DNA of 64,000 bases from Alphaproteobacteria bacterium (GCA_963422565.1 OY730228.1:560622-624621); one strand, 5' to 3'. Numbered from the stretch's first letter, positions 799-35,743 are shown. Notes: generated by a model not told the origin, from the sequence alone. A program made the numbers and translations.

Positions 799-1998
799 AT
801 GGCGATGTCGAAACAGCGCGCGGCCGTTTTCGCGAGCGGGTTCTTCGGCCTCGGGCTGGTCTCGATGATGACGGTCGCGGTGCCGCTCTGGGCGATCGAG
901 CTCGGGATCGGCCCGTTGACGATCGGACTCGTCCTCGGCGCCCGGGCGGCGCCTTCGGTCCTGTTCTCGATCCCCGGCGGCGCGCTGATGGACCGGTTGA
1001 GCACCAACCGCATCATGGCGGCGGCCGCCACGGCCTCGGCCGTCGGCTTCCCGCTCTACCCCGTGCTGCCCCGGGTCGAGGCGCTGATCCTCCTCCAGAT
1101 GCTGACGGGTTTCGCCCAGGGGCTGTTGTGGATGGGCGCCCAGGCGCATGTCTCCCGCCTGCGCGGCAGCGCCGATGCCGGCCTGATGGGCCGGTTCACC
1201 CTGGTCTCCACATCGGGCAATCTCGTCGGGCCGCTCCTCTGCGGGGCCGCTTCGGACATCTGGGGCCTGCAGGCGGGATTTCTGGTCATCGGGCTCTGGT
1301 CGGCGGCGGCGCTGGCGACGACGGCCGCGCTCCCGCGCCCGGATGCCGCACCGGGCCCCGCCACGCCGACGCCGGGGCGGCGCCCGGCCGCCGGCGCCTA
1401 TGCGGCGGCGCTGCGGATGCTCGCCGCCCCGGCCGTCGGTTTCGTCATCGCCTGCTCCTTCCTGATGACCTGCACGCACGCGCTGCGCCATTCCTTCTAT
1501 CCGGTCTATCTGGAGTCGCTCGGCCTGACCGGCACGCTGATCGCGCTGCTGGTCGCGGCGGGCTCGGTCGTCTCGGGGCTGGCCGGGCTGACGACCGGTA
1601 TCGCCGCCCGGCGTTTCGATCCCAACCTGCTGCTTCTCGCCGCAGTCGCGCTGACCACGCTCTGCATTTCCCAGGTGGTGTTGTTCGAGGCCTTCTGGAG
1701 CCTGTTCGGAATGGCGGTGCTGTGGGGAGCGGTCGCCGGCATCGCGTTTCCGCTCATGCTCTACGCGCTCGCCCGCGCGGTCGATTCGGACCGGCAGGGC
1801 ATGAGCGTCGGGATCCGCACCACGGTCAACCGCGCGGCGGGTCTCGTGGTGCCCGTCGCCGTCGGCGCGGTGGTCGATCTGGCGGGCATCGAGGCCGGGT
1901 TCTACATCTTCGCCGTCTGCATTCTCGGCGGGCTCGGGACGATCGCCTGGCGGTTGCTGCCCGGCACCCGTGCGCGGAACGGACCCGGACGCGAATAG
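799..1998 (+). CDS. MFS transporter
   Basis: C-terminal 399 aa of ORF 10..1998 (MAMSKQRAAVF...); about 12 hydrophobic segments; MFS motif A-like GGALMDRLSTNR. Confidence 0.88.
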   Translation: MAMSKQRAAVFASGFFGLGLVSMMTVAVPLWAIELGIGPLTIGLVLGARAAPSVLFSIPGGALMDRLSTNRIMAAAATASAVGFPLYPVLPRVEALILLQMLTGFAQGLLWMGAQAHVSRLRGSADAGLMGRFTLVSTSGNLVGPLLCGAASDIWGLQAGFLVIGLWSAAALATTAALPRPDAAPGPATPTPGRRPAAGAYAAALRMLAAPAVGFVIACSFLMTCTHALRHSFYPVYLESLGLTGTLIALLVAAGSVVSGLAGLTTGIAARRFDPNLLLLAAVALTTLCISQVVLFEAFWSLFGMAVLWGAVAGIAFPLMLYALARAVDSDRQGMSVGIRTTVNRAAGLVVPVAVGAVVDLAGIEAGFYIFAVCILGGLGTIAWRLLPGTRARNGPGRE

Positions 1999-2009
1999 GG
2001 ACGGAACGA

Positions 2010-2909
2010 ATGGATATCCGGATCGGAACGTCGGAGATCGGCGGCACCTTCCACAGCCAGGCGGAGGCGATCGGAACGCTCGCCCGGCGCGAAGGGCCGT
2101 TCGCAAGCGTCGCGCTTGCGGCCACCGAGACGGCGAGCATCGGCAACGCCCTGCTGCTCGACGAAGGTCGGGTGGATTTCGGCTTCCTCGCCGCCAACTG
2201 GATCGGCCTCGCCGCGCGCGGCGAAGCGCCGTTCGACCGGCCCATCGATCTTCGCATCGCCGCGCCGGCCAATAGCGGCCCGCTGTTCTTCGTGGTCCGG
2301 GCGGAGTCGGGGCTGCGGAACGTCGACGAGATCGGGGGCCGGAGAGTCTCGGTGGGCCCCGCCGTCAGCGGCATGGCCCGGCACGCCGCCGGCATCTTCG
2401 CCGTCCTGGGAATTGGTCCCGCCGACTGCGAGCGCGTCCACCTCGATTTCGCCGACGGCGCCGACGCGCTCGTTCGCGGCGAGATCGACGTCCAGCTCCA
2501 ATGCCCGGTTCCCAACGCGGTCATGACCCGCCTCGCCGAGAGGGCGGACATCCGGGTGCTCGACTATACGCCGGGCCGGCTCGAGCAGTTGATCGCGGCG
2601 GTGCCCTTCTACCGCCCGGCGATCGTTCGCGCCGGCGCGTTTCGCGGCCACGACCGGGACAGCGCGCAGCCGGGGGTCCTCAACCTCGTCGCCGCCCACC
2701 GGCGGGCGCCCGACGGGACCGTCGCCGCGCTCGCCGGCCTGATGGCGCGAAGGCACCGGGAGCTGGCCGCGCTCAACCCGCTCTTCGACGGCCTCGGCGC
2801 GCTGTTCGCGCCGCTGCGGCGTCGCGGCCCCGAGGGGCTGGAGATCGACGGCGTGCCGCTTCATCCCGGCGCCATAGACGCCTTCCGCCGCTGCGGGCTG
2901 CTCCCCTGA
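2010..2909 (+). CDS. TAXI-family TRAP solute-binding protein, no visible signal peptide
   Basis: MDIRIGTSEIGGTF..., SIGNALLLDEGRVDFGF, GRRVSVGPAVSG and a C-terminal PLHPGA are TAXI (NMT1_3-like) motifs. Confidence 0.85.
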   Translation: MDIRIGTSEIGGTFHSQAEAIGTLARREGPFASVALAATETASIGNALLLDEGRVDFGFLAANWIGLAARGEAPFDRPIDLRIAAPANSGPLFFVVRAESGLRNVDEIGGRRVSVGPAVSGMARHAAGIFAVLGIGPADCERVHLDFADGADALVRGEIDVQLQCPVPNAVMTRLAERADIRVLDYTPGRLEQLIAAVPFYRPAIVRAGAFRGHDRDSAQPGVLNLVAAHRRAPDGTVAALAGLMARRHRELAALNPLFDGLGALFAPLRRRGPEGLEIDGVPLHPGAIDAFRRCGLLP

Positions 2910-2947
2910 CCGGCGCGGCGGCAACCACGCCCCGGGGTAGAACGATC

Positions 2948-3157
2948 CTACGCGACCGCTCCGAGACCGTGCTTCGCCACCAGCATCAGCAGCTTCAGCG
3001 AGGCGCCGCGCGGGCGCTTCTCACCGCGCTCCCATCGGCTCGCCAGCCCGGTCGCCGCGTTGAGGTAGCGGCCGAACACGGCCTGGCTCGCATTCTCGCG
3101 CAGCCGGAGCGCGCGGATATCCTCCGGGGCCATCTCCTCGACCGGCGTCAGGCACAT
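2948..3157 (-). pseudogene. N-terminally truncated XRE/Cro-HTH regulator (HigA/YiaG-like antitoxin remnant)
   Basis: MCLTPVEEMAPEDIRALRLRENASQAVFGRYLNAATGLASRWERGEKRPRGASLKLLMLVAKHGL is an HTH_3 domain. The usual N-terminal ~30 aa and any toxin partner are missing. Confidence 0.7.
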
Positions 3158-3267
3158 CTCGAAGGCGCCGGTCTTTACGGCGACAACTCCCCACCCCGTC
3201 CGATGACGAGTTCCGGGCCGGGGCCGATAGAGAGGACGAACCGCGCGTCGGCGCCGCTCCACGGCGG

Positions 3268-3489
3268 TCAGGAGGGGACGAGCTTGAGGAGGCCGAAAGT
3301 GATGGCGGCGTTGGCGACCACGATGGCGAGCGCGACCTTGTGGAGGTCGGCTTTGGTGGCGACGCGTCCGAGATCCGCCCCCGCCGCATCGCGCATGGCG
3401 CTGGCGGCGGCTTCGGCTTGGCGGCGATCGAAACCGGCGACTTCGAGCTCGCAGGCAGCCTTGAGGACGTCGAAGGTGCCGGCGGTCAT
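3268..3489 (-). CDS. Short DUF1640/CCDC90-like coiled-coil protein with C-terminal TM helix
   Basis: AGGAG RBS 6 nt before ATG 3489; TFDVLKAACELEVAGFDRRQAEA...VATKADL followed by a hydrophobic tail. Confidence 0.78.
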   Translation of the reverse strand: MTAGTFDVLKAACELEVAGFDRRQAEAAASAMRDAAGADLGRVATKADLHKVALAIVVANAAITFGLLKLVPS

Positions 3490-3585: not shown

Positions 3586-4899
3586 CTAAAACTGCTTGAC
3601 GAAGCCCAATTCGGCGCGGTTTCGTTTGTAGTCTTGTAGTTGGGCGTTGGTGGTCCTCATTTCGTCGACCAGCGTCAGTCTAGGGCTGAAGCCGGCGAAT
3701 GTCAGGCCCCGGTTCAGGACGGAGACCCGCAGCGTTCGGGTCATGTCGGTGCGGCGCGTCCCGTCGTCGGTATAGTGGGGCCAGCCGCCGTCGCCGCCCT
3801 CGTAGGCGGTTCGGCGCAACGCCCCGCTGGCTCCCAGCGTGAAACCCCGCGGCAGGACGAAGGACGCGCCGAGCCGGCCCCAGAGGGCTGCGCTCCGCCA
3901 TTGCTTGGTCTTCGGACGGTCGCGGTCATGACCCAGCGTTGCCCAAAGCCGCAGCGTCGGGGTCGCCACCCAGGACGCTCCCAGAGAAACCTCCCTCGCC
4001 GGGCCGTCGAGATAGTCGTGCCGGCGATAGTCGCGCTTGCGCCAGGCTGCCGAGGCATCGAGCCGCCATCGCGGACCCAGGCGGCGCTCCGCCTCGATCC
4101 GCCCGCCGAACGTGTCGCTGTCGGGATTTCCGCTGTGCCATTGCCGCGAGACTTCGGCAAGCAGGCTCACCTCGCTGGCGGCGCCAATCAGCCAGCGCGG
4201 CCCGAGATGGAGGCCGACGAAGGTGCGGTCGAAGGTGCTGCCTTCATATTCGCGCCGAGACGCGTCTCCCCCGGCGCGAATGCCGAGGCGTTCGGTCAAG
4301 GGATACGCGTATTCGCCGCCGCCCCAGACCGAAAGGCCGAGCCCCGAGCGAGCGCCCGCATCGCGTCGAAACGGCAGCCTGCCGAAGGGGGTCTCCAGAT
4401 GGATGATCTCCTCGCTGGATGCGGCGTTGATGTTGCTGTCGGGCGCAATGGCAAAACCGAAATAGCCCGACCATCGCCGGCGGGCGCGCATCAGATCGAG
4501 AAAACGATTGACGTTGAGCACCACCCCCGCCGGCGGCTTGCCGGCCAGCACCCGCTCGAAATGGCGCCGGGCGAGGGCGTCCTCCCCCTTGAGAAAGAAG
4601 GCGCGGGCGAGTTCGAGCCGCACCCGCATAAGACCCGGACTGTCGATGAGAATGGCGTGGAATGAAGCGATCGCCTCGTCGAGACGATCGCTCCGGATCT
4701 CTCGGCTATCCGCGCGCTCGGCGAAACGGAGTGCCGTCATGCCGGTGCGGAACAAGTCTTGATTGCGACGCGGGTCACCGACCGCATCGGAGATGCGCAT
4801 CCCGACGCTCGCAACGGGTAGCTCGCCAGAAAGCGAAGCAGCGGTCGCCGTCGAAAGCAGGCTAACCGACACCACGCCGGCGAGCAGATGCATAAACAT
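3586..4899 (-). CDS. Slam/DUF560 surface lipoprotein assembly modifier (type 11 secretion translocon: TPR plus outer-membrane beta-barrel)
   Basis: Signal peptide (MFMHLLAGVVSVSLLSTATAA), TPR-like RVRLELARAFFLKGEDALARRHFERVL, DSNINAAS motif, amphipathic beta-strands and terminal LGFVKQF. Start may be 4893. Confidence 0.88.
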   Translation of the reverse strand: MFMHLLAGVVSVSLLSTATAASLSGELPVASVGMRISDAVGDPRRNQDLFRTGMTALRFAERADSREIRSDRLDEAIASFHAILIDSPGLMRVRLELARAFFLKGEDALARRHFERVLAGKPPAGVVLNVNRFLDLMRARRRWSGYFGFAIAPDSNINAASSEEIIHLETPFGRLPFRRDAGARSGLGLSVWGGGEYAYPLTERLGIRAGGDASRREYEGSTFDRTFVGLHLGPRWLIGAASEVSLLAEVSRQWHSGNPDSDTFGGRIEAERRLGPRWRLDASAAWRKRDYRRHDYLDGPAREVSLGASWVATPTLRLWATLGHDRDRPKTKQWRSAALWGRLGASFVLPRGFTLGASGALRRTAYEGGDGGWPHYTDDGTRRTDMTRTLRVSVLNRGLTFAGFSPRLTLVDEMRTTNAQLQDYKRNRAELGFVKQF

Positions 4900-5015
4900 G
4901 CAACGTACCCTTGGAAAAAAAGTGGCAGTGCCCGGCACCCTGAAGAAAAGGGGCCGAGCACTGCCCGAAGATGCCATTGCGGAAAATCTTCTCAATGGCA
5001 GTCGATTATGTGGGT

Positions 5016-6734
5016 CTATCTCTCTGCGCCGAACGCGCCGACAACGCCCCTGTATTTCTTTTCATTATTGGCATACGCGCTATGGGTGGCGGCCATAAAC
5101 TTCCCAGCAACTCCCGTCGGCTGTTCCTTCAGATCGTCTACGCCGTAGAACTGCGACGCCCATTCGCCGTCCGCAAACTTCACGCCATCCGCCGCGCCTC
5201 CAATCTCACCTTCACTAGTGCCATCCTTATTAAGATCGCTTTCTTCCAGTCGGACGATCCAATCGCTATCGCCGCCGTCGAAAGGATCGTTGGGATTGTC
5301 GGAACTGTCGCGACCGATGTACCGGCCGTGGCTATCCTTGAAGTTGTCGATACGCCCTGTCAACTTGCCCATACCGCCATTAAAATTTGCCGTCAGCTTC
5401 GCGCGAGCGACGAACATTCCGTTACTAACATCCCGGTCCACATAGAGCCCCGTCGCAGAGCCTTCGTAGGTGGCCTTGCCGCCCAAACTATTCTCGACGC
5501 CCACCTCGTTCTGGCCATAGAAAAACACGTCGCCAAAATGTTCGCCATGTTCCTGGTCGTTGGGCACGGTGGCCCAGACGCCGAAAGCCAACCAATCCTG
5601 GTCCGGCAACATGATCGTCGCGCCCTTATCGGGCTTGAACGTCCATACGAGGCCTGTCTTGGAATTAATCTGAAACCGGGCTCCGGTCCTGACGCCGCCA
5701 ACATCTACAATTCTGCAATCATCGTCAGCCGTGCCGTCTGCGCAATTCAGCGTACCCTTCACACCGAGATATTCTGCCGGGATCCCGTTCTTCCGCTCGT
5801 CGGCGTCAAAAGTAAACGCACGCCGAGCTCCAGTTGGCACAACAGCCTTTACAAACTGGGCATCAGATACTGCCATTTGGATCATGCCGTCGGTCACTTG
5901 AAAATACTTTTTCAGTTTATCATCGGCAATATGGTTCACCAGTTCTTTGTCGAATTTATACTCTTTGGGGTTCTCGACATTCGAGTATATCAGGGCACCC
6001 GTCTCAAAGCCTGCGTCCTCATCTCCTTCGGTGTCTCCCCAATCCCTGAACATGACCCGTTGGTCCCATTTCGGAAGGTCAAGTTCGCTAGCTTTGCCGC
6101 CATCTTTACCCTTGCCACCGATCTTCTTTTTAGCCCCGCTCGCGGAAGTGAATCTATCTTCCAAAGTTACACCAGACAAGTCCTCAGGGCCAATCCCCTC
6201 CAGAACGGTGCTATCAAGTTTGGCGTCCTTCCAACCAATGATCTTATCCTTGCTATCGAACGTACTACTGAAGGCAGAGACAATTATCGAGGGGTTTGCG
6301 GGATTTAGCCGGTTGACGATTTCTTCGGGGTCGGGCCCGGGGGGAAGCTTCGCCACAACCAGCATGTTATCACCGGATTTATCCTCCGCATCGGTCCGGG
6401 TCTTCCAATTCGCCTCGACCTTGCCGAGATTCCGCGTCAGCTCGATGGTGCAGGGATACTTGCTCTTGCATTCGAAGACCACGCCCTCGCGAGTATCGCT
6501 CTGGCCGGCCCCGATCTCAAGCGTAGCAGAGTTATCCTGACTCTCTAGCCCATCCAACAGTTCATTAGTGACTGGCACATCAAAGTCCATCGAAACCGTT
6601 CTGGCCGTCGGCCCACTCGATGTCGACGGCTGTTGGGTATTGGTGTCATTATCGCTGGAGCAGGCGGCCACGCCTAGCGCCAGAGCCACGGCGGCGGCCG
6701 CAGCAGTCATCGGTTTGAAGTATCTCGGATCCAT
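5016..6734 (-). CDS. TbpB-like (transferrin-binding-protein-like) surface lipoprotein, predicted Slam cargo
   Basis: RBS GAGAGGGGG before ATG 6734; lipobox LGVAA-C; S/T/D-rich linker; C-terminal TbpB-type barrel (ATYEGSATG...LTANF...LTGRIDNF...WASQFYG...VAGKF...VVGAFGAER). Confidence 0.88.
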   Translation of the reverse strand: MDPRYFKPMTAAAAAVALALGVAACSSDNDTNTQQPSTSSGPTARTVSMDFDVPVTNELLDGLESQDNSATLEIGAGQSDTREGVVFECKSKYPCTIELTRNLGKVEANWKTRTDAEDKSGDNMLVVAKLPPGPDPEEIVNRLNPANPSIIVSAFSSTFDSKDKIIGWKDAKLDSTVLEGIGPEDLSGVTLEDRFTSASGAKKKIGGKGKDGGKASELDLPKWDQRVMFRDWGDTEGDEDAGFETGALIYSNVENPKEYKFDKELVNHIADDKLKKYFQVTDGMIQMAVSDAQFVKAVVPTGARRAFTFDADERKNGIPAEYLGVKGTLNCADGTADDDCRIVDVGGVRTGARFQINSKTGLVWTFKPDKGATIMLPDQDWLAFGVWATVPNDQEHGEHFGDVFFYGQNEVGVENSLGGKATYEGSATGLYVDRDVSNGMFVARAKLTANFNGGMGKLTGRIDNFKDSHGRYIGRDSSDNPNDPFDGGDSDWIVRLEESDLNKDGTSEGEIGGAADGVKFADGEWASQFYGVDDLKEQPTGVAGKFMAATHSAYANNEKKYRGVVGAFGAER

Positions 6735-6756
6735 CGCGGAACCCCCTCTCGATTTT

Positions 6757-7138
6757 ATGTAGAGGCCCCATGTAGAGGCCCCATGTAGAGGCCCCATGTA
6801 GAGGCCCCATGTAGAGGCCCCATGTAGAGGCCCCATGTAGAGGCCCCATGTAGAGGCCCCATGTAGAGGCCCCATGTAGAGGCCCCATGTAGAGGCCCCA
6901 TGTAGAGGCCCCATGTAGAGGCCCCATGTAGAGGCCCCATGTAGAGGCCCCATGTAGAGGCCCCATGTAGAGGCCCCATGTAGAGGCCCCATGTAGAGGC
7001 CCCATGTAGAGGCCCCATGTAGAGGCCCCATGTAGAGGCCCCATGTAGAGGCCCCATGTAGAGGCCCCATGTAGAGGCCCCATGTAGAGGCCCCATGTAG
7101 AGGCCCCATGTAGAGGCCCCATGTAGAGGCCCCATGTA
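6757..7138. repeat. Perfect tandem array: 29 x 13-bp ATGTAGAGGCCCC plus a 5-bp partial unit
   Basis: Read directly: the first unit starts at 6757 and the 29th at 7121 (364 = 28 x 13), followed by ATGTA. No spacers and no mismatches seen. Confidence 0.98.
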
Positions 7139-7152
7139 AAAGAGCGGACTAT

Positions 7153-7181
7153 ACGCTATCCCACTCCCGACCGACCGTCAA
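7153..7181 (-). promoter_or_regulatory. Sigma70-like promoter for the lipoprotein-Slam operon
   Basis: Minus strand TTGACG (7181-7176), N17, TAGCGT (7158-7153). Predicted TSS near 7146, upstream of the array. Confidence 0.55.
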
Positions 7182-7319
7182 CGGGATTCTTCGACCGCAC
7201 CGAATCGCAGCCCCGCCCTTCATCGGCCGCACGGGCGGAATTCCGTTGGCATGAACCCGTCGATCTCCTACCTTCCCGAACGTGCCGGGAAGGCGCGCAG
7301 CACGTTCGGGAAGGTACAG

Positions 7320-7634
7320 ATGCTCTATATCATATACCAGCGCGACCGGCCGGGGGGCGCGGAGGTCCGGGCCGCCAACCGGGATGCCCATTTCGCCTAT
7401 CTGGACGCGCACAGGGACAAGCTGGTCCTCGGCGGCGCGCTGCTCGCCGAGGACGGGCAGACCCGGCTCGGCAGCGTGCTGATCGTGAACGTCCCTTCGC
7501 GCGCCGAGGCGGAAGCCTTTTCCGAGAACGAGCCCTTCCGCGCCGCCGGCCTGTTCGAACGAGTCGAAATCGCCCATATGCGCAAGGGACAGTGGAACCC
7601 CGACGCCGCCCCGAAGACGGCGGAAGGCGATTGA
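7320..7634 (+). CDS. YciI family protein
   Basis: MLYIIYQRDRPGGAEVRAANRDAHFAYL...GGALLAEDG...GSVLIV...AEAFSENEPFRAAGLF. Confidence 0.88.
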   Translation: MLYIIYQRDRPGGAEVRAANRDAHFAYLDAHRDKLVLGGALLAEDGQTRLGSVLIVNVPSRAEAEAFSENEPFRAAGLFERVEIAHMRKGQWNPDAAPKTAEGD

Positions 7635-28472: not shown

Positions 28473-28549
28473 TGGCGCGCCCGGCAGGATTCGAACCTGC
28501 GACCCGCGGATTAGAAGTCCGCCGCTCTATCCAGCTGAGCTACGGGCGC
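28473..28549 (-). tRNA. tRNA-Arg(TCT)
   Basis: GCGCCCGTAGCTCAGCTGGATAGAGCGGCGGACTTCTAATCCGC...GGTTCGAATCC...GCGCCA; cloverleaf with encoded CCA. Confidence 0.95.
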
Positions 28550-28667
28550 TACGCCGCGTCCATGCGAACGACTTCTACACCAACCCATCCGACGCCGCAT
28601 CGGCCGGGCTCGTCCGGAACGGCCGACGAACGCGCCACCGGGGGGGTCCGGACACCGGGCGACCGCC

Positions 28668-28976
28668 TCAATGGGTCCAGCTCATGGTCCGAGTGTAGCT
28701 GAAATTGTCGGCATAGGCCTTCGGGAGGATTTTCCTTTCGCGCCCGGAATGGATCTCGAACGACAATCCGTGGTGCTCGGCGAAGGCGACCGCGTCCTCG
28801 CCGGTCGGGAATTCGAGCCTGATCTGACCCCTAGTGTCGCCGCGCCCGGCCCATCCCATCAGAGAGTCCCGCCGCTGCGCGAGGGTAGCAGAAAATTCCA
28901 GGACCCAGAGGTTGCACCGCGCCCGACCCGACTGCATCGCGGTCTTGGCCGGCCGATAGATGCTGACATCGCTCAC
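28668..28976 (-). CDS. ETC complex I subunit conserved-region protein (NDUFS4-like)
   Basis: IYRPAKTAMQSG, LMGWAGRGDT..Q..LEF, KAYADNF. Confidence 0.92.
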   Translation of the reverse strand: MSDVSIYRPAKTAMQSGRARCNLWVLEFSATLAQRRDSLMGWAGRGDTRGQIRLEFPTGEDAVAFAEHHGLSFEIHSGRERKILPKAYADNFSYTRTMSWTH

Positions 28977-29069
28977 TGGCGTCTCTCCGGTCGTCGGGCC
29001 GCGCCACCAAGCATCGACGACCGACGGCGTCCCCGGCCGGAAACCGGCACGGGCTGCCGGAGGCAAAGG

Positions 29070-29147
29070 TGGCGGGAGTGACGGGACTCGAACCCGCGGC
29101 CTCTGGCGTGACAGGCCAGCGCTCTAAACCGACTGAGCTACACCCCC
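29070..29147 (-). tRNA. tRNA-Asp(GTC)
   Basis: GGGGGTGTAGCTCAGTCGGTTTAGAGCGCTGGCCTGTCACGCCAG...GGTTCGAGTCC...CGCCA. Confidence 0.95.
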
Positions 29148-29165
29148 TCGCGACGGAAGCCCATC

Positions 29166-29195
29166 ATGTAGAACGGTCCGGCTCGGGGAGTCAAC
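29166..29195 (-). promoter_or_regulatory. Possible sigma70 promoter for tRNA-Asp
   Basis: GTTGAC-N18-CTACAT, close to the alphaproteobacterial CTTGAC-N17-CTATAT consensus. Confidence 0.4.
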
Positions 29196-29217
29196 GCTCC
29201 GCGCTGCCGCCGAGCCG

Positions 29218-29293
29218 TGGTGGGCGGTGACGGGATCGAACCGCCGGCCTCCACGGTGTAAACGTGGCGCTCTACCTGCTGAGCTAACCGCCC
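29218..29293 (-). tRNA. tRNA-Val(TAC)
   Basis: GGGCGGTTAGCTCAGCAGGTAGAGCGCCACGTTTACACCGTGG...GGTTCGATCC...CACCA. Confidence 0.95.
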
Positions 29294-35658: not shown

Positions 35659-35743
35659 TGGTGCGGGCGGAGGGATTCGAACCCCCACGGCTTGCGCCAC
35701 CAGATCCTAAGTCTGGCGTGTCTACCATTTCCACCACGCCCGC
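35659..35743 (-). tRNA. tRNA-Leu(TAG)
   Basis: GCGGGCGTGGTGGAAATGGTAGACACGCCAGACTTAGGATCTGG, long variable arm, GGTTCGAATCC...CACCA. Confidence 0.96.

Follow-up and report, generated by a model that had tools for sequence, protein, structure and literature searches.

The 5' leader of a surface-lipoprotein mRNA in a poorly sampled alphaproteobacterium consists almost entirely of a perfect minisatellite of 29 exact 13-bp units, which is present in independent sequencing runs, is transcribed together with the gene and is predicted to pair extensively with itself. The array is located in a 64,000-nucleotide stretch of DNA (GCA_963422565.1 OY730228.1:560622-624621), here called the window, of which it is the one outstanding tandem repeat. 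Tandem Repeats Finder places it at 6757-7138 with a period of 13 and reports 29.4 copies of ATGTAGAGGCCCC with 100% matches, 0 indels and a score of 764. The array is made up of 29 full units (6757-7133, 377 bp) and a partial ATGTA at 7134-7138. A search of the window for exact and one-mismatch copies returned 29 copies of the unit, every one exact and inside the array (0.00 expected from 100 shuffles), so that the 29 perfect 13-bp repeats over 377 bp noticed in a first-pass annotation are confirmed by both methods. The array sits between a divergent gene of the yciI family (7320..7634, plus strand, identified by domain searches), which bounds the intergenic region, and the lipoprotein gene on the minus strand (6734-5016). 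On the minus strand, the sense strand of the adjoining lipoprotein gene, the array unit reads GGGGCCTCTACAT; as a leader feature (6757..7138, minus strand) the array comprises 29 exact copies of the sense-strand unit GGGGCCUCUACAU. The perfection of the units implies that unit turnover is recent or ongoing.

Array-only unitigs and both junctions of the array were recovered from the independent DNA-like runs X1-X5, and the array is therefore not an artefact of assembly, a concern that had been raised when it was first noticed. The same runs give an indication of its length. For an array of N units and k = 31, about N - 2.3 occurrences of each array k-mer are expected in a genome, and copy number was estimated from unitig depth, a measure that can be biased in a structured repeat. 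The depths of array and flank are 412 and 29 in X1 (ratio ~14, ~16 units), 92 and 4.1 in X2 (ratio ~22, ~25 units), 1100 and 39 in X3 (ratio ~28, ~30 units), 3200 and 136 in X4 (ratio ~23.5, ~26 units) and 128 and 8-12 in X5 (ratio 11-16, 13-19 units). The estimate for X3 agrees with the 29.4 copies counted in the window and thereby lends the method support. A search for runs labelled PacBio or RNA-Seq returned none. The depth ratios of the five DNA runs suggest that the length of the array differs among samples, between approximately 13 and 30 units. The X3 contig of the flank has an apparent 1-nt gap in its array-proximal part, which may be a graph artefact and was given no weight.

The array is co-transcribed with the lipoprotein gene as the 5' leader of its mRNA. 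Two runs, X19 and X20, were taken as RNA from their expression-like coverage, with depths of 834 and 391 over the lipoprotein gene and of 64 and 38 over the yciI region, respectively. In each of them one contig extends out of the gene body, across the start codon and ribosome-binding site (RBS), and enters the array as far as the graph permits (k-1, with k = 31), and the array unitigs stand at 14.4x (X19) and 9.7x (X20) the depth of the gene. Coverage is zero at 7164-7291 in X19 and at 7164-7434 in X20. A contig that joins the coding sequence to the array, together with bare DNA upstream, places the 5' end of the RNA inside the array or within about 25 nt of its distal edge. The proposal that the array is transcribed as a leader is borne out by these contigs, and the contrary idea that it lies upstream of the true transcription start is contradicted by them and by the zero coverage upstream. 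In X6, an RNA run from 2013, the array unitig has a depth of 221 and the flanking intergenic DNA is at zero, which rules out carry-over of DNA as its source. The ratio of array to gene depth is 0.7-14 in RNA, compared with 11-28 in DNA; possible reasons for the lower ratio in RNA are 5' fall-off, internal starts, processing or poor reverse transcription.

Because the RNA-like runs are bare at 7164-7291, the promoter is located at or near 7153-7181 or inside the array itself. A candidate promoter TTGACG-N17-TAGCGT is found at 7153..7181 on the minus strand, with hexamers read from the sequence at 7181-7176 (TTGACG) and 7158-7153 (TAGCGT) and a spacer of 17 nt, and an alternative -10 element, TATAGT, is located at 7153-7148. 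A unique stretch (7139..7152, minus strand) connects the candidate -10 to the array, and transcription would be expected to start at about 7141-7146 if this promoter is used. The bounds set by the RNA fit TTGACG-N17-TAGCGT, with a start near 7146, and TATAGT alike, so that both have to be regarded as candidates. Of the promoter as first proposed, the hexamers, the 17-nt spacer and the fit to the RNA bounds hold, and its weakness lies in the -10 element, which matches TATAAT at three of six positions, and in a scan for sigma-70 consensus promoters that did not call the TTGACG-N17-TAGCGT site. The weak -10 and the uncalled consensus would also suit an array that lies upstream of the true promoter and serves as a DNA spacer or binding platform; however, array and coding sequence are continuous at gene depth in the RNA-like contigs, and coverage upstream is zero. 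The recovery of array unitigs and of the two junctions from five or more independent DNA runs tells against the array being an artefact, and there is next to no likelihood that either a DNA platform or an assembly error accounts for it.

The lipoprotein gene (5016..6734, minus strand) encodes a protein of 572 amino acids with the N-terminus MDPRYFKPMTAAAAAVALALGVAAC, in which the lipobox LGVAAC occupies residues 20-25 (family consensus AGCGG), and with a C-terminal beta-barrel that resembles those of TbpB, fHbp and NHBA. The protein has no match in Pfam and no sequence-level match in the PDB, and its score with the NCBIfam model slam_lipo is 26 bits, below the cut-off of 80; the model is weakly matched by 8 of 28 relatives. 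An AlphaFold model (28 homologues) has a mean pLDDT of 66.7, with the C-terminal strands mostly above 80. When this model is compared with the PDB by Foldseek, the matches are the C-domain of NHBA (6.6e-5), fHbp (9.4e-4), the C-lobe of TbpB (2.6e-3) and LbpB (1.2e-2), four surface lipoproteins of Neisseria which we take to be Slam cargos. The fold search thus agrees with the earlier description of the product as TbpB-like. The label of type 11 secretion cargo is supported by the model and by the gene neighbourhood, with Slam dependence and surface exposure as predicted properties. The nearest relatives of the lipoprotein share just 35% identity with it and belong to uncultured alpha- and gammaproteobacteria, some of them in assemblies whose names suggest sponge-associated bins. 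The GC content of the gene (window 4800-6800) is 52-56% compared with 68-72% in the surrounding DNA, which suggests horizontal acquisition, or a swapping of cargo beside a resident Slam gene. Within the gene, contigs of X3 (DNA) and X6 (RNA) break at 5891-6030, where X6 has an alternative path of 40 nt with two differences; this hints at allelic micro-diversity or at a repeated segment within the lipoprotein gene.

The outer-membrane protein gene of the type 11 secretion system, Slam, is located downstream at 3586..4899 on the minus strand (PF04575 with 2.7e-23, a weak TPR_Slam match, likely start ATG 4899), and a Slam gene directly follows the lipoprotein homologue at four of nine related loci tested. 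Between the lipoprotein stop and the Slam start lies an intrinsic terminator (4915..4966, minus strand) which consists of a 17-bp GC-rich stem followed by ACUUUUUUU. The 121-nt terminator segment folds with -53.3 kcal/mol (z = -6.0), and the RNA contig of X6 stops at 4950, within the terminator. The PF04575 match supports the Slam gene named at the outset, but a terminator of this strength, with its 17-bp stem and U-tract, separates the two genes, so that they do not form a simple operon and the earlier term is only partly apt. The array-led transcript would therefore cover mainly the lipoprotein gene.

The sense strand of the array is devoid of stop codons in all three frames. As the array is in frame with the lipoprotein, this yields a mechanical open reading frame of 697 amino acids (5016-7109), an annotation trap in which gene callers can stretch the lipoprotein ORF across the array; the form in the protein collection is the one of 572 amino acids. 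A translated array would produce GASTWGLYMGPLH-repeat peptides, either as an N-terminal extension of the lipoprotein or from upstream ORFs ending at 6755 or 6649 that could modulate initiation at 6734. Every unit offers an AUG located 7 nt after GGGG, a spacing equal to that at the true start, and the absence of a stop from every sense frame of the array, with the two frames other than that of the gene ending at 6755 and 6649, would allow such translation to proceed. Against this, GGGG and AUG are predicted to be buried in 8-bp GC helices, a signal peptide 125 residues from the N-terminus would escape lipoprotein processing, and the homologues begin with a lipobox signal peptide. Translation of the array in either form is accordingly judged very improbable, and the N-terminal extension was rejected on structure and signal-peptide logic. 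Since AUG codons occur in all three frames whatever the number of units, the frame provides no switch.

At the RNA level the leader is predicted to be highly structured. Its 461 nt have a minimum free energy (MFE) of -240.7 kcal/mol (z = -8.3), and lengthening the array by two units adds about -15.9 kcal/mol in the folding. The GGGGCCUC block is able to pair with itself through 6 G-C and 2 G-U pairs, and the MFE structure is composed of 8-bp helices with 5-nt segments between them in an ensemble of highly degenerate registers, the helices being interrupted by 5x5 loops or arranged as local hairpins. The pairing of adjacent GGGGCCUC blocks, one of two structures envisaged at first, is thereby reproduced. 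The other, a G-quadruplex, fares poorly and was rejected as the main structure: the array has a G4Hunter score of 0.77 and loops of 9 nt, where the usual thresholds are at least 1.2 and at most 7 nt, and it would have to compete with stable 8-bp GC hairpins. The array-proximal part of the leader, AAAAUCGAGAGGGGGUUCCGCG (6735..6756, minus strand), contains a Shine-Dalgarno-like (SD) sequence GAGAGGGGG at 6750-6742, and the sense strand just 3' of the array reads AAAATCGAGAGGGGGTTCCGCG, followed by the lipoprotein ATG at 6734-6732. Partition-function folding with 0-40 units gave no length-graded change at the RBS, which weakens the copy-number rheostat proposed at first. It did give an effect of parity, the SD being unpaired with a probability of about 0.24 for an even and about 0.15 for an odd number of units, which is predicted to arise when a block left without a partner binds AGAGG of the SD. 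Should the array tune expression, a change in mRNA stability or processing, or a toggle by parity, is on the strength of this folding more likely than a progressive masking of the RBS.

The preferred explanation for these features, held with about even confidence, is that the array is a slippage-prone minisatellite at the 5' end of the lipoprotein mRNA and functions as a contingency locus of the 5'-UTR type. Transcription would start where the array ends on the yciI side, or slightly further in, so that the mRNA would open with up to ~380 nt of GGGGCCUC-UACAU units, which would fold as a degenerate ladder of GC-rich 8-bp helices. Slipped-strand mispairing would add or remove units and so alter the leader, the altered leader would change mRNA stability, processing or ribosome access, and subpopulations of cells would then differ in the amount of exposed lipoprotein. 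That copy number sets protein output, and the route by which it would do so, is what we infer. The alternative of a neutral minisatellite, which recent slippage enlarged in a permissive 5'-UTR and which plays no part in regulation, is less probable though it deserves to be taken seriously. It would account for the near-indifference of RBS access to array length in the folding and for the coexistence of a long array with high expression of the lipoprotein gene in X19 and X20. A leader of recent origin could also be expected of a gene that looks foreign by its GC content. A long upstream array is moreover absent from all 11 homologous lipoprotein loci examined, which means that the array is not a trait of the family and that selection on it has no comparative support. 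A two-unit exact pattern had no match in the genome contig collection or in viral contigs, and a variant-unit pattern had none in viral contigs. On the other hand, a perfect and strongly structured leader of 382 bp would probably affect the highly expressed surface-protein mRNA that carries it, the array persists across samples from 2013-2025 with at least two host labels, and comparable repeats change output in studied cases such as hmw1A (PMC12721329). The basic finding of the transcribed array is solid, and a function as a contingency locus is, by analogy, plausible.

A second locus in the DNA runs contains 31 nt that resemble the array with one mismatch and are bounded by direct repeats on either side. 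Contigs of X1, X3, X4 and X5 were mapped on window positions 6784-6814 and on L013:258-293, and mapping with the single repeat gave the spacers. The spacer TGTAGAGACCCCATGTAGAGGCCCCATGTA is located between 36-nt repeats GCTGCGGATTGCGGCCGCTTCTCGATTTGCTACACT in X1, X3 and X4 and at a loose end in X5, and the spacers between repeats are 29-30 nt long in these four runs. The metagenome contig L012, with five 36-nt repeats, 30-nt spacers and a 66-bp period, identifies the family as a genuine CRISPR. TGTAGAGACCCCATGTAGAGGCCCCATGTA equals the plus strand of the array at 29 of 30 positions in 28 overlapping registers, the lone mismatch being at spacer position 8. The depth of the spacer contig compared with that of the genome is 28.1 vs 23-35 in X1, 40.9 vs 39 in X3, 142.7 vs 118-154 in X4 and 7.8 vs 7.8-11.9 in X5, and as it tracks the genome over an 18-fold range the CRISPR locus probably belongs to this genome or is part of a single-copy replicon of it. 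A spacer that matches the array thus appears to reside in the same genome as the array. Next to the flank-adjacent TGTAGAGACCCCATGTAGAGGCCCCATGTA there are no further spacers in X3, and there are at least two in all in X1 and at least five in all in X4, differing between the samples. As TGTAGAGACCCCATGTAGAGGCCCCATGTA is the sole spacer in X3 and the extra ones in X1 and X4 lie on its other side, it is the oldest, trailer-end spacer.

The CRISPR repeat ends in TGCTACACT and presumably resembles the type II-C repeats of Neisseria and Parvibaculum. In the arrays of those bacteria each repeat carries a promoter and the crRNA consists of the spacer followed by the repeat. Judged by this likeness and by the -10-like motif TGCTACACT, the guide would be antisense to the lipoprotein leader RNA, and GAGGCCCC flanks the DNA protospacer on its 3' side in this putative orientation of the crRNA. 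Searches in viral contigs did not find protospacers of the other spacers, and the CRISPR array had no match among plasmids. The proximal flank of the repeat array itself (6733-6755, plus strand), whose sequence is antisense to the RBS and start codon, can be aligned to positions 8-28 of the CRISPR repeat with 18/23 aligned, including an exact TCTCGATTT (shuffle p = 0.003), and has the same side and orientation as the repeat that precedes TGTAGAGACCCCATGTAGAGGCCCCATGTA. This likeness may be due to chance, as comparable scores are found elsewhere in the GC-rich window. In X2 one contig carries an inverted, partial repeat of 22 nt at 4.6 kb from an array, at a depth that points to a replicon present alongside. 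Repeats of this CRISPR family also form a five-repeat mini-array beside a TrwC relaxase on a metagenome contig (L012:1-340 and 811-3270) and are found in the same samples on a second replicon or organism of very different relative depth, with the spacer TCCGCCGCCGCTTCCCAGGCTCCGATCGC at 405 in X1, 1022 in X4 and 10 in X3, which suggests that arrays of this family are borne by mobile elements.

Ongoing cleavage of DNA by a self-matching crRNA was rejected, given that four samples contain both the spacer and the perfect 29-unit array with its 28 targets. The simplest reading is that of a tolerated spacer, derived from the genome itself or from a donor and possibly gained against incoming DNA that carried the low-GC cassette. 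It has to be weighed against an active role, in which the array is a type II-C crRNA target and a Cas9-crRNA complex binds or cuts the leader RNA, or binds the DNA, and thereby lowers expression of the lipoprotein. Such a role would agree with the position of TGTAGAGACCCCATGTAGAGGCCCCATGTA between repeats of a genuine CRISPR family (66-bp periodicity in L012) at genome-like depth in X1, X3 and X4, with its match to 28 overlapping sites through a single PAM-distal mismatch, and with its retention as the sole spacer in X3 and the flank-adjacent one in X1 and X4 while other spacers differ. An orientation of the crRNA antisense to the mRNA, the similarity of the array-proximal flank to the CRISPR repeat, the smaller amount of array per gene in RNA than in DNA and a lack of the array-gene junction in X6 would all be in keeping with it. 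However, there are no cas genes within the 64-kb window, neither cas9 nor tracrRNA was recovered for the genome, and a crRNA carrying TGTAGAGACCCCATGTAGAGGCCCCATGTA was not seen among the RNA contigs. The putative orientation derives from the likeness to Neisseria and Parvibaculum repeats and a -10-like motif, the high expression of the gene in X19 and X20 indicates that repression is not strong there, and accidental self-derived spacers are common and usually tolerated relics. Targeting of the leader by Cas9 is therefore considered improbable, and a similarly small chance is given to leader and spacer acting as a working pair in which output would be jointly set by the number of repeats and the level of crRNA/Cas9.

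By analogy, the nearest studied system is the heptamer repeat of hmw1A and hmw2A in Haemophilus influenzae, whose logic the array would share. The heptamers are transcribed in the 5'-UTR and form a long hairpin that is processed by RNase III (PMC12721329), and expression of the adhesins depends on the repeat number (PMC12721329; PMC2424069). Both systems place a transcribed 5'-UTR tandem repeat in front of a surface-protein gene and have extensive RNA structure, which is predicted in the case of the array. The array differs in that its unit is 13 rather than 7 nt long and present in 29 perfect copies essentially at the 5' end, and in that its units pair with each other, whereas the partner of the hmw repeat is a distinct G-rich arm. 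The array also has a CRISPR match, and it belongs to an alphaproteobacterium, free-living or symbiotic, and not to a human pathogen. In hmw the repeat number varies and sets expression; for the array variation is suggested by depth, and a role of RNase III would follow by analogy.

In the uspA2 5'-UTR of Moraxella catarrhalis the number of AGAT repeats reportedly modulates the level of the surface protein and leaves the frame unchanged (Attia and Hansen 2006). The uspA2 locus is listed in PMC7302503. Like the array, its repeat is located in the transcribed leader of a surface-protein gene, but it is a tetranucleotide without strong self-pairing. To our knowledge no CRISPR spacer is linked to uspA2. 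Slam cargo genes of Neisseria, for example hpuA with its poly-G, carry homopolymer tracts in the coding region that act as frameshift on/off switches; hpuA thus shares a repeat tract at a Slam-type surface lipoprotein gene with the present locus, where the repeat is a 13-nt minisatellite in the leader instead. With respect to the spacer, the Cas9-tracrRNA-scaRNA system of Francisella novicida is said to repress a lipoprotein operon, and Cas9 of Campylobacter jejuni reportedly targets endogenous RNAs. The likeness to these two lies in a type II(-like) guide that would base-pair with the 5' leader of a (lipo)protein gene of the cell itself, but the putative guide at the present locus is an ordinary spacer of the CRISPR array with 29/30 identity, its target is repeated 28 times, and the relationship is known from sequence. 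Short direct repeats in the leader are also found in another environmental bacterium, as the intergenic TAACTGA repeats of marine Beggiatoaceae have a proposed post-transcriptional role (PMC4679880). Those repeats occur at many loci with few copies each, unlike the single locus with 29 copies in the window. Within the literature collection that was searched, no paper describes this repeat locus.

No match of the RecG encoded in the window exceeds 74% identity, with named matches in Defluviicoccus, Kiloniellaceae and Rhodospirillaceae MAGs, and the organism is on this basis a poorly sampled alphaproteobacterium. Look-ups of exact protein sequences from the window gave no match. The bacterium recurs in X1-X12, runs with at least two organism labels and very large contig sets from studies of 2013-2025; this recurrence would fit a bacterium stably associated with a eukaryotic host or culture rather than an isolate. 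Repeat-controlled surface antigens are textbook knowledge in a few human pathogens and almost unstudied in environmental or host-associated alphaproteobacteria, and the same is true of repeat control of type 11 secretion cargos except in Neisseria and related bacteria. A clean, transcribed and self-pairing minisatellite on a highly expressed cargo gene would make a tractable model of how leader repeats affect the fate of an mRNA, and the array could be put to practical use as a strain-typing marker. The matching spacer poses the question of type II-C regulation of, or tolerance to, an endogenous multi-copy target. If leader and spacer did act as a pair, they would amount to a naturally occurring circuit that regulates a type 11 secretion cargo by self-targeting at multiple sites.

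A search in Rfam returned only chance matches to miRNA models (E ~0.8), and a scan of the whole window gave, tRNA aside, no family at threshold. The window contains four tRNA genes (28476-29293 and 35662-35743, minus strand), of which three form a cluster. On the far side of the intergenic region, a perfect 17-nt inverted repeat, TACCTTCCCGAACGTGC / GCACGTTCGGGAAGGTA (7269-7285 / 7300-7316), is located immediately 5' of the yciI start codon, where it may serve as an operator or form a 5'-UTR hairpin. The yciI contig in the RNA of X19 starts at 7292, within this inverted repeat (7269-7316).
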